The notes below the pieces were generated by a model. The model had not been told where the DNA came from, did not search any database, and was given only the letters and a program-made list of their open reading frames with translations. Of a DNA stretch of 64,000 bases, positions 17,465-17,590 are shown in pieces. The number at the start of each line of letters is the position of its first letter. Position 1 is the stretch's first letter. This DNA is from a virus: IMG/VR virus record IMGVR_UViG_3300009177_000720. The stretch is one strand, 5' to 3'. The translations under genes and the position numbers were made by a program.

Positions 17465-17590
17465 TGGAGAGCCAGGTGGGATTCGCACCGCACATTCTCC
17501 AGTTTATCATAACTGGTGCTTCATCATCGGCTACTGTCTGCATATGCCACGTTCGCATACCGTTTTTCGCCCTCATTTAGCTACCGGCTC
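17465..17590 (-). ncRNA. tRNA-like RNA with ~50-nt D-loop insertion and 8-nt anticodon loop (GAU/Ile-like)
   Basis: Acceptor GAGCCGG/CTGGCTC+T+CCA, TAGCT...AGC D-stem, CCAGT-TATGATAA-ACTGG, T-arm with TGCGAAT loop; 126 nt. Confidence 0.75.

Follow-up and report, generated by a model that had tools for sequence, protein, structure and literature searches.

What does a phage gain from a gene shaped like that of a tRNA in which a large structured arm takes the place of the D-loop? The question is raised by the DNA stretch IMGVR_UViG_3300009177_000720 from a giant soil phage, of 64,000 nucleotides (the window hereafter), which carries such a gene directly after the one for a Pth2-type peptidyl-tRNA hydrolase. 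We found that the gene belongs to a conserved family of jumbo phages, with covarying helices in the inserted arm, a fixed genomic neighbourhood and a distinctive pattern of invariant and variable positions. The RNA has kept the features by which tRNAs are handled and lost several of those by which they decode. It is probably a tRNA mimic, and it may act as bait for a host factor directed at anticodon loops.

A tRNA-shaped gene with an arm at the D-loop

The original prediction, made from the window alone, described a tRNA-like RNA with an enlarged D-loop and an anticodon loop of 8 nucleotides (nt), located after pth; all these parts were found on the minus strand. Read on this strand, position p of the RNA is 17591 minus the window coordinate. 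The gene occupies almost all of the 149-nt gap between the stop codon of Pth2 and the next open reading frame (ORF). Its parts and the box preceding it are the following:

17465-17590, minus strand: tRNA-like RNA gene, 126 nt, with mature ends predicted from the acceptor stem and CCA
17584-17590, minus strand: 5' strand of the acceptor stem (p1-7), paired with 17469-17475 (p116-122)
17518-17581, minus strand: D-stem closing the arm, G10-C11-U12 (17579-17581) with A71-G72-C73 (17518-17520)
17521-17577, minus strand: inserted arm in place of the D-loop, p14-70, about 57 nt
17543-17559, minus strand: hairpin Pb of the arm, UAUGC/GAACGUG/GCAUA, p32-48, with a 5-bp stem and the 7-nt loop GAACGUG (17548-17554)
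17499-17516, minus strand: anticodon arm, p75-79 with p88-92, with a 5-bp stem and the 8-nt loop UAUGAUAA (17504-17511)
17476-17493, minus strand: T-arm of 5 bp plus bulged C101, with the T-loop UGCGAAU (17481-17487) and a G at position 55
17465-17475, minus strand: 3' strand of the acceptor stem (17469-17475), discriminator U73 (17468) and encoded CCA (17465-17467)
17598-17605, minus strand: TGATATAG box, 8-15 nt upstream of the RNA

The acceptor stem has 7 pairs, one of them G6.U67, and U8-A9 are present. The arm comprises, in order, an internal loop (invariant A14, U16 and A18 facing G66 and A67), the helix Pa (p20-22 with p60-62), a GAAA/AGUA junction and the hairpin Pb. Directly after the 3' strand of the D-stem comes A74, which corresponds to standard tRNA position 26. 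In the window copy the anticodon-loop triplet is GAU, followed by A37-A38, and the variable loop counts 5 nt. The extra D-loop sequence that had been predicted is present, with a length of about 57 nt (p14-70) instead of about 50. A D-stem is present as well, the one upheld by comparison of homologs being the outer stem, G10-C11-U12 with A71-G72-C73. The G55 of the T-loop had gone unmentioned.

The TGA within TGATATAG is also the stop codon of Pth2. A/T-rich GATATA-like boxes lie 8-15 nt upstream of most homologs, and the TGATATAG box is a putative regulatory element; a simple sigma-70 scan called no promoter at it.

Standard tools overlook the gene. ARAGORN reported 13 tRNAs and a transfer-messenger RNA (tmRNA) in the window, the RNA gene not being among them, and Rfam at gathering thresholds missed it. 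The Infernal check proposed with the original prediction was run: in E-value mode, the Rfam tRNA model (RF00005) reached 28.2 bits for a cut-off of 29, through an alignment truncated to 17540-17468 that used a poor internal acceptor strand. Because tRNA finders and Rfam miss the gene, the RNA family has been left unannotated in giant phages; there is no Rfam model for it and a literature search returned no paper on it. The family is previously undescribed and belongs with the phage tRNA-like RNAs. The fold of the single sequence is not significant alone when compared to shuffles (z = -1.4). As this fold by itself is no better than shuffles, the case rests on homologs.

The homolog family and its covarying helices

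Homologs were collected from loci reached via the Pth2 protein and with DNA patterns derived from conserved blocks. This yielded 14 distinct members, including the window copy, on jumbo-phage contigs that measure between 20 and 480 kb and come from metagenomes of soil, the rhizosphere and groundwater. A covariance model of the family, R1, gives the members 82-136 bits (129.7 bits for the window copy) and ordinary tRNAs at most 48 bits. The members are:

With a GAGCCGG-type acceptor stem: window copy, L173, L016, L001 (GAUCCGG), L167, L273
With a GCCCC-type acceptor stem: L031, L187, L039, L165
Further members: L272, L179, L005, L278

The CCA is encoded in 6 of the 14. Whole-record scans found exactly one copy per record in 4 of the 4 phage records carrying the RNA, and no copy in several related phage records. 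Five further loci have no RNA within 2.5 kb of Pth2, and no family member was found in the huge-phage records LR756500 and LR756501, where the Pth2 genes are 50-52% identical. No match was returned by blastn (distant mode) with positions 17100-18500 against the 50,697 records of a cultured-phage database; a specific-pattern scan of 185,579 prokaryote genomes retrieved chance matches only, with no host or prophage clue. The pattern GAAAGCG-N(5,6)-GAACGTG was dropped as unspecific, giving at least 118 chance matches. A pattern made of the T-loop plus UAUUUAA, the gap range of which left out the B type, matched the L005 contig only.

In the alignment of the 14 distinct sequences, which was fitted to the model and hence favours structure, 94.8% of the base-pair cells are standard pairs, to be compared with 77.9% after column shuffles and 36-42% in a control where the partners were slid by 1-3 columns. 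Seventeen pairs are changed on both sides across the members, and compensatory changes are nonetheless visible in the raw sequences. Double changes affect 3 of the 3 pairs of Pa and 5 of the 5 pairs of Pb. Since all the Pa and Pb pairs covary, the inserted arm is under structural selection. For Pb, 100% of the cells are paired and the loop is invariant in 13 of the 14 members, the exception being L005. Elsewhere, acceptor pairs 2-71, 3-70 and 6-67 change on both sides among homologs, the anticodon stem holds 4 covarying pairs and the three D-stem pairs are invariant (14/14). The T-stem contains a bulged or extra paired nucleotide in most members; it has 6 bp in L005, L179 and L031, making 7+6 = 13 stacked pairs.

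The insert is also the most sequence-conserved part of the gene. Between the window and L273, the first 62 nt of the RNA are identical and the 3' third nearly so, for Pth2 proteins only about 75% identical; the scaffold as a whole is 95% identical, the Pth2 DNA 69% and the anticodon arm 61%. At the strain level, DNA contigs from three public runs contain few point variants of the RNA of the window's phage and no indels. One variant turns G6.U67 into G-C, another U42 into C, and the close strains keep the 8-nt anticodon loop.

Two observations made on the window copy would be expected from a decaying tRNA pseudogene with a random insertion, namely the failure of the standard tRNA detectors and the fold no better than shuffles. 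The comparative data refute this explanation, to which we leave virtually no chance: there are 14 homologs with doubly changed pairs, the inserted helices all covary, the scaffold is conserved beyond the neighbouring genes, and the strain variants show no indels and one G.U to G-C replacement. The argument that retained pairing speaks against simple decay was therefore borne out, homologs with compensatory changes being in hand. That the RNA is a selected, structured RNA derived from tRNA is almost certain.

Departures from tRNA and the question of decoding

With canonical tRNA (RF00005) the family shares the 7-bp acceptor stem, U8, A14, the D-stem pairs, position 26, the 5-bp anticodon stem, the 5-nt variable loop, a T-arm with U54, C56, A58 and G53-C61, the discriminator plus CCA and a location in a tRNA cluster. 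It differs in the arm of about 57 nt, a universal G55, the loss of U33 in 13 of the 14 members or an 8-nt loop, and a triplet uncoupled from acceptor identity. The strength of these departures was gauged on 70 canonical tRNAs from the window and the complete relative G004. Position 55, which is G throughout the family (14/14), is U in 65 of the 70 tRNAs, with one G and 4 unresolved cases. At position 33, 8 members have A and 4 have A+U (8-nt loop), while C and U occur in one member each, for 67 U33 and no A33 in the 70 tRNAs. The discriminator is U or C in 14/14; A73 was seen in each of the five canonical tRNAs for Lys and Ile that were examined in G004. The canonical D-loop of 7-11 nt with G18-G19 is absent, 57 nt with two covarying helices standing instead.

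Within the anticodon loop the variation is confined to a few places. Across the family, the loop varies at positions 33-35, the triplet switching among GAU, UUU and GCU on one scaffold, and U36-A37-A38 is invariant (14/14), with U32 in 13 members and A32 in 1. The 8-nt loop occurs in the window copy, L016, L173 and L278, and the other 10 members have 7-nt loops. Being held by 4 of the 14 only, it is one state of a variable position and no family trait.

This pattern can be read against the bacterial synthase of N6-threonylcarbamoyladenosine at position 37 (t6A37), studied in 2026 by cryo-EM and mutagenesis (PMC13276492). There, 36-UAA-38 is a strict determinant, read via a base triple that involves position 32, a U (or C); the pockets holding positions 34 and 35 are non-specific and these two positions neutral, the TsaD subunit contacts the D-stem pairs G10:C25, C11:G24 and U12:A23, and U33 is unrelated to t6A and needed for ribosome binding (PMC13276492). 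The family presents the substrate features of TsaBD: 36-UAA-38, U32 (13/14) and the three D-stem pairs in a tRNA shape. Its conservation would fit the t6A machinery, or a reader of t6A-class anticodon arms, and not decoding. TsaD and Sua5/TsaC genes were not found in phage genomes G001-G004.

Decoding would also be redundant. The complete 480-kb genome of G004 encodes about 58 tRNAs covering all 20 amino acids, among which Lys(UUU), Lys(CUU), two Ile(GAU) and Ile(UAU), all canonical; as G004 already has canonical Lys and Ile tRNAs, the mimic is surplus to decoding. The body of the RNA was not recently copied from the phage's canonical tRNAs for Ile, Lys or Arg, to which it aligns weakly at best; in those for Arg, the T-loops are canonical, the D-loop is GGAUA and position 73 is G or A. 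We also considered the arm loop as a spare Arg anticodon (ACG, or GCG in L005, at the centre of the 7-nt loop). This idea deserves little credit: the bases flanking ACG are unlike those of an anticodon loop and the RNA body bears no Arg identity marks.

Could the RNA nevertheless be charged and work as a tRNA with a special job? The arm would then be a handle for a dedicated enzyme, like the long D-arm of tRNA-Sec, and the product could be an adaptor of non-standard identity, a shift-prone or four-base reader (in the 8-nt members) or a non-ribosomal aminoacyl donor. In favour of a charged tRNA, the cloverleaf core is intact (U8, A14, A26, the 5-nt variable loop, U54-A58, G53-C61 and C56), CCA is encoded in 6 of the 14 members, U36-A37-A38 are as in ANN decoders, 3 of the 4 members with 8-nt loops have a U just before the triplet (UAU-GAU-AA; L278 is ambiguous), and the gene is located in a translation module with the initiation factor IF3, Pth2, tmRNA and suppressor tRNAs. 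The enlarged D-arm recalls tRNA-Sec, in which it is an identity handle, and so do the 13 acceptor-plus-T pairs of L005, L179 and L031. The resemblance is partial, since the RNA has neither a long variable arm nor a UCA anticodon, the 7+6 arrangement is not family-wide and the D-arm is about 10 times the 6-bp D-stem of tRNA-Sec.

Several features oppose charging. U33 is missing in most members and G55 is universal, when A33 and G55 are found in 0 and 1 of the 70 canonical tRNAs of these phages. Ile, Lys and Ser triplets are swapped and neither the acceptor stem nor the discriminator follows; A73 and the long variable arm of the Ser type occur in no member, the 8-nt loop varies within the family, and canonical isoacceptors are already there. 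Moreover, when an aptamer was inserted between positions 16 and 18 of E. coli tRNA-Tyr, the product was not stably expressed (PMC5397188); a natural domain at this D-loop site is for that reason unexpected. A charged tRNA seems unlikely to us; should it be one, it would be an unusual adaptor with an identity uncoupled from its anticodon.

The narrower idea of a frameshift-suppressor tRNA, one of the four functions initially proposed, is weakened by the presence of the 8-nt loop in 4 of the 14 members only, close relatives having 7-nt loops with A33, C33 or U33. The suppressors sufD, sufJ and sufA6 share an 8-nt anticodon loop with the window copy and three relatives; here, the additional base precedes U33, on the 5' side of the loop, and varies within the family, and the body is not that of a normal tRNA. 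The RNA is probably a non-decoding mimic, as we conclude from comparison of sequences: U33 and U55 have been lost, the discriminator is non-cognate, triplets switch without identity change, and canonical isoacceptors make the RNA redundant.

Genomic setting and candidate roles

The RNA lies just downstream of an amber-gated HD/Pth2 pair in 14 of the 14 loci. The gene order, conserved in all loci, runs from an M23 peptidase-like gene through two unknown genes, an HD-family gene, Pth2 and optional small ORFs to the RNA, then through optional small ORFs and one or two tRNA(CUA) genes to an HNH-like gene and IF3. In the window, the genes of interest are:

17603-17947, minus strand: Pth2-type peptidyl-tRNA hydrolase gene (Pfam PF01981), with an in-frame TAG at codon 4 (17936-17938)
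16669-16741, minus strand: second tRNA with a CUA anticodon, overlooked by ARAGORN and Rfam and unusual in its T-loop
16451-16523, minus strand: amber-suppressor tRNA(CUA), about 940 nt downstream of the RNA, two ORFs intervening
33963-35174, 37223-38194, 39867-40817, 46622-47728 and 22750-23535, all minus strand: RNA repair set, consisting of a T4-type RNA ligase 1 (Rnl1), two polynucleotide kinase-phosphatase-like (PNKP-like) proteins, an RlaP nucleotidyltransferase and a Thg1-like enzyme

Pth2 and HD start with ATG, one or two sense codons and TAG in every relative examined, and on the strength of this conserved early TAG both depend on amber suppression. The Pth2 start pattern ATG-NNN-CTA-TAG is conserved in relatives, CTA being the usual codon before TAG (window sites 17936-17947 and the 18494-18524 region). 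The codon following the amber codon of Pth2 or HD is ATT, GTT or AAC irrespective of the type of RNA, and is not the RNA's triplet. With the standard code, 90% of the window is already coding, as a check for TAG recoding showed. A Gln-like amber-suppressor tRNA(CUA) begins within about 6 nt of the 3' end of the RNA in 9 of the 14 loci, and a CUA tRNA of the 16669-16741 type follows the RNA directly in L278 and L005. The IF3 gene (14951-15490, minus strand, both Pfam domains) is phage-encoded and kept downstream of the module in relatives.

Such a setting is compatible with a cis-acting element, that is a tRNA-shaped processing signal or 3' stabiliser in the HD-Pth2-suppressor-tRNA transcript, which would divide the mRNA from the tRNAs, set the level of the amber-suppressor tRNAs and thereby unlock the amber-gated HD and Pth2. 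The RNA has a fixed place on the same strand, from 12-22 nt to about 1 kb after Pth2, and this explanation draws further on the closeness of tRNA(CUA) in 9 of the 14 loci and on the conserved early TAG codons. Dimeric tRNA precursors with short spacers are classical in T4. Yet the window, L016, L001, L272 and L273 have one or two intervening protein genes or no following tRNA, and the RNA is fully conserved there. Nor does a processing signal need an invariant U36-A37-A38, a switching triplet or a conserved 57-nt arm. We rate a cis role as improbable.

The RNA repair set bears on two other explanations. T4 uses its RNA repair toolkit against the anticodon nuclease PrrC (PMC10264068); as RNA repair genes are carried here too, tRNA cleavage is a plausible pressure on this lineage. 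In relatives, Rnl1 is present with or without the RNA element, with no correlation. The same genes raise the possibility of a pre-tRNA with an intervening sequence in the D-loop, which the phage kinase-phosphatase and RNA ligase would help to cut out and rejoin, a fate also envisaged in the original prediction. Rnl1, the two PNKP-like genes and RlaP do lie 16-30 kb away in the window, and the insert sits after position 17, at the naturally length-variable part of the D-loop. However, no endonuclease or bulge-helix-bulge-like signal was identified, bulge-helix-bulge not being specifically modelled; no Rfam intron or ribozyme matched up to E = 10, and a group I intron would not fit in an insert of this size. 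The insert is moreover the most conserved part of the gene, and Rnl1 is equally present in relatives lacking the RNA. Excision is disfavoured because the arm is under strong selection for both sequence and structure and because its removal would still leave G55 and no G18-G19, nor U33 in most members. An RNA ligase is there as predicted; the excised insert is very improbable.

Nothing supports a Y-RNA or tmRNA-like RNA, another of the initial proposals: Rfam gives no such match, the RNA has a different topology and an ordinary tmRNA is present at 21241-21596, 3.7 kb from the RNA. tmRNA and YrlA have in common with the family a tRNA-like module operating outside normal decoding. Their tRNA-like part is without an anticodon arm and has different ends or topology; the RNA studied here has an anticodon arm. 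Rfam additionally reports a 'permuted tmRNA' of 48.8 bits at 21462-22162 (minus strand), spanning the 5' part of the tmRNA and four tRNA-Thr genes, which is most likely an artefact of tRNA-like parts.

Of the four functions initially proposed, that of a tRNA mimic or anticodon-nuclease decoy agrees best with the data. In the loop, positions 33-35 vary freely and U32, U36, A37 and A38 are kept; A73 is lacking, canonical Lys(UUU) and Ile(GAU) coexist in G004, and Rnl1 and two PNKP-type genes are carried. The RNA would be a stable, trans-acting derivative of tRNA, in which features for tRNA handling are kept and those for decoding lost. The acceptor stem and T-arm would have been kept for maturation by RNase P and at the CCA within the tRNA operon; U8 and A14 have been kept too, and the D-stem pairs G10:C25, C11:G24 and U12:A23, U32 and U36-A37-A38 would have been kept as determinants of the host t6A37 synthase. 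The losses would comprise U33, U55, A73 and the D-loop with G18-G19, converted into the kinked arm of about 57 nt. The anticodon arm would imitate ANN decoders, Ile-GAU in the window phage and Lys-UUU or Ser-GCU in relatives, and the bait would draw in a host factor reading or cutting loops of this kind; a defence system's anticodon nuclease is the most likely candidate. Synthetases, EF-Tu and the ribosome would be kept off by the changed elbow, by the arm and by the discriminator.

That the RNA is a bait for an anticodon-loop-directed host factor is the mechanism that we prefer, as a possibility advanced tentatively. We are slightly more doubtful about the fully specified version, a purpose-built bait that would be t6A-modified, would be ignored by synthetases and ribosomes through the loss of both U-turn uridines (U33 and U55), of the G18-G19 elbow and of A73, would have had positions 34-35 swapped to match the ANN-decoding tRNA attacked by the anticodon nuclease of the local host, and would have its elbow rebuilt by pairing of the arm loop (C40-G41-U42) with G57-C56-G55. 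Phage tRNAs that evade nucleases provide a point of comparison. T5 tRNA-Lys, for instance, escapes the PARIS system. Such tRNAs share with the family altered loop positions outside the triplet and a lineage with RNA repair genes. They are otherwise normal decoders; the RNA described here has a rebuilt elbow, an added arm, a non-cognate discriminator and coexisting isoacceptors, so that it looks more like bait than like a replacement tRNA.

A number of points weigh against the bait. No nuclease or other partner was identified, and it would be odd for a decoy acting by stoichiometry to come from a gene present in one copy. The bait alone leaves the sequence conservation of the arm and the invariant G55 unexplained, and an invariant U36-A37-A38 would also be expected of a genuine ANN-restricted decoder. 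The RNA is absent from several related phages with the same HD/Pth2 module and RNA ligase, from which it follows that it is dispensable and does not track the repair genes. Finally, a possible distant analog found in G009, in which the acceptor stem, the T-arm and a long D-arm are kept and the anticodon arm is a stub of 4 bp with a 4-nt loop, would speak for the bait; as two scans for its relatives found none, its homology stays conjectural.

Part of what the bait leaves aside could come from a contact between the arm and the elbow. The arm loop may pair with the RNA's own T-loop through C40-G57, G41-C56 and U42.G55, a pairing that would replace the lost contacts of G18/G19 and would explain the invariant G55. 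Three hints point in this direction: in L005 the two loops have changed jointly, into UUGCGCA and UGCAAAU; U42 is replaced by C in a strain variant; and the G009 putative analog combines a canonical T-loop with an arm loop starting with CGA. A covariation count on positions 40-42 with 57-55 meets columns that hardly vary.

The conserved arm could alternatively mean that the RNA is a scaffold for another partner, titrating or recruiting the host t6A synthase, RNase P or another enzyme that binds the elbow or T-arm, or forming a particle with one of the conserved small phage proteins encoded beside it. Conservation extends along the whole length of the arm, 62 of 62 nt being identical where the Pth2 proteins are about 75% identical, which suggests an extended binding surface. 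The invariant positions are the TsaBD determinant set, small ORFs flank the RNA in most loci (F3, F9, F13 and F17, with no Pfam or PHROG matches), and on direct reading the AGUA/GAA-type junctions of the arm look like possible loop-E platforms. No partner was identified, however, the flanking small ORFs differ between loci, no t6A genes were found in G001-G004, and it is not evident what a phage would gain from titrating an enzyme needed by its own 58 or so tRNAs. We regard a scaffold of this kind as an unlikely role.

By its architecture, the closest known RNA is T4 RNA C (species 1, rnaC), a small stable phage RNA encoded in a tRNA cluster. Its fold has an acceptor-like stem, a hairpin of about 62 nt at the D-arm position, a hairpin at the anticodon position and a canonical T-arm, and its biological role is still unknown (PMC3014915, PMC9697503). 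It differs from the family in its canonical T-loop, a 10-bp anticodon-position hairpin without UAA, acceptor mismatches and no link to a suppressor tRNA. Model R1 with filters off scored rnaC at 6.4 bits (E about 0.9), that is no detectable homology.

The family is a natural demonstration that the D-loop site of a tRNA fold can hold a large structured domain. It also offers a natural experiment, in which one scaffold bears three triplets and the invariant positions agree with what the t6A synthase requires, not with what the ribosome requires. Were the bait confirmed, counter-defence would gain a new principle, the RNA decoy, in addition to repair and to tRNAs that resist cleavage. This would be the first decoy tRNA known from nature to counter immunity that targets tRNAs, and the first tRNA scaffold found in nature to bear a large D-loop domain; it could suggest a role for T4 RNA C, of similar architecture and without known role for 50 years.

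Other observations were made along the way. The window carries two auxiliary metabolic genes on the minus strand, for a PHO4-family phosphate transporter and an adenylosuccinate synthetase, with coordinates 38204-39214 and 49862-50998. The G009 analog is a 116-nt tRNA-like RNA (L253:1501-1616, G009:39669-39784) with the same TGATATAA box upstream, a canonical T-arm and a GCUC/GAGC D-stem that closes an arm of about 48 nt, in which there are AGUA/GAA motifs. Unusual tRNA architectures seem to characterise the phage lineage. In G004, three tRNAs of normally class-I types have long extra variable arms (Asn-GUU of 87 nt, Ile-UAU of 94 nt and Gly-UCC of 84 nt), a tRNA-like gene has an anticodon loop of 6 nt, and a further tRNA, with the anticodon UUA, reads ochre; these unusual tRNAs are at L200:3629-3715, L200:4773-4866, L201:17061-17144, L200:2928-3001 and L200:10273-10349. 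A 462-kb huge-phage genome contains a 140-nt tRNA-like gene (L263, LR756500.1:86241-86380, minus strand), in which the acceptor stem, D-arm and T-arm are normal and about 85 nt of structured sequence replace the anticodon and variable region.

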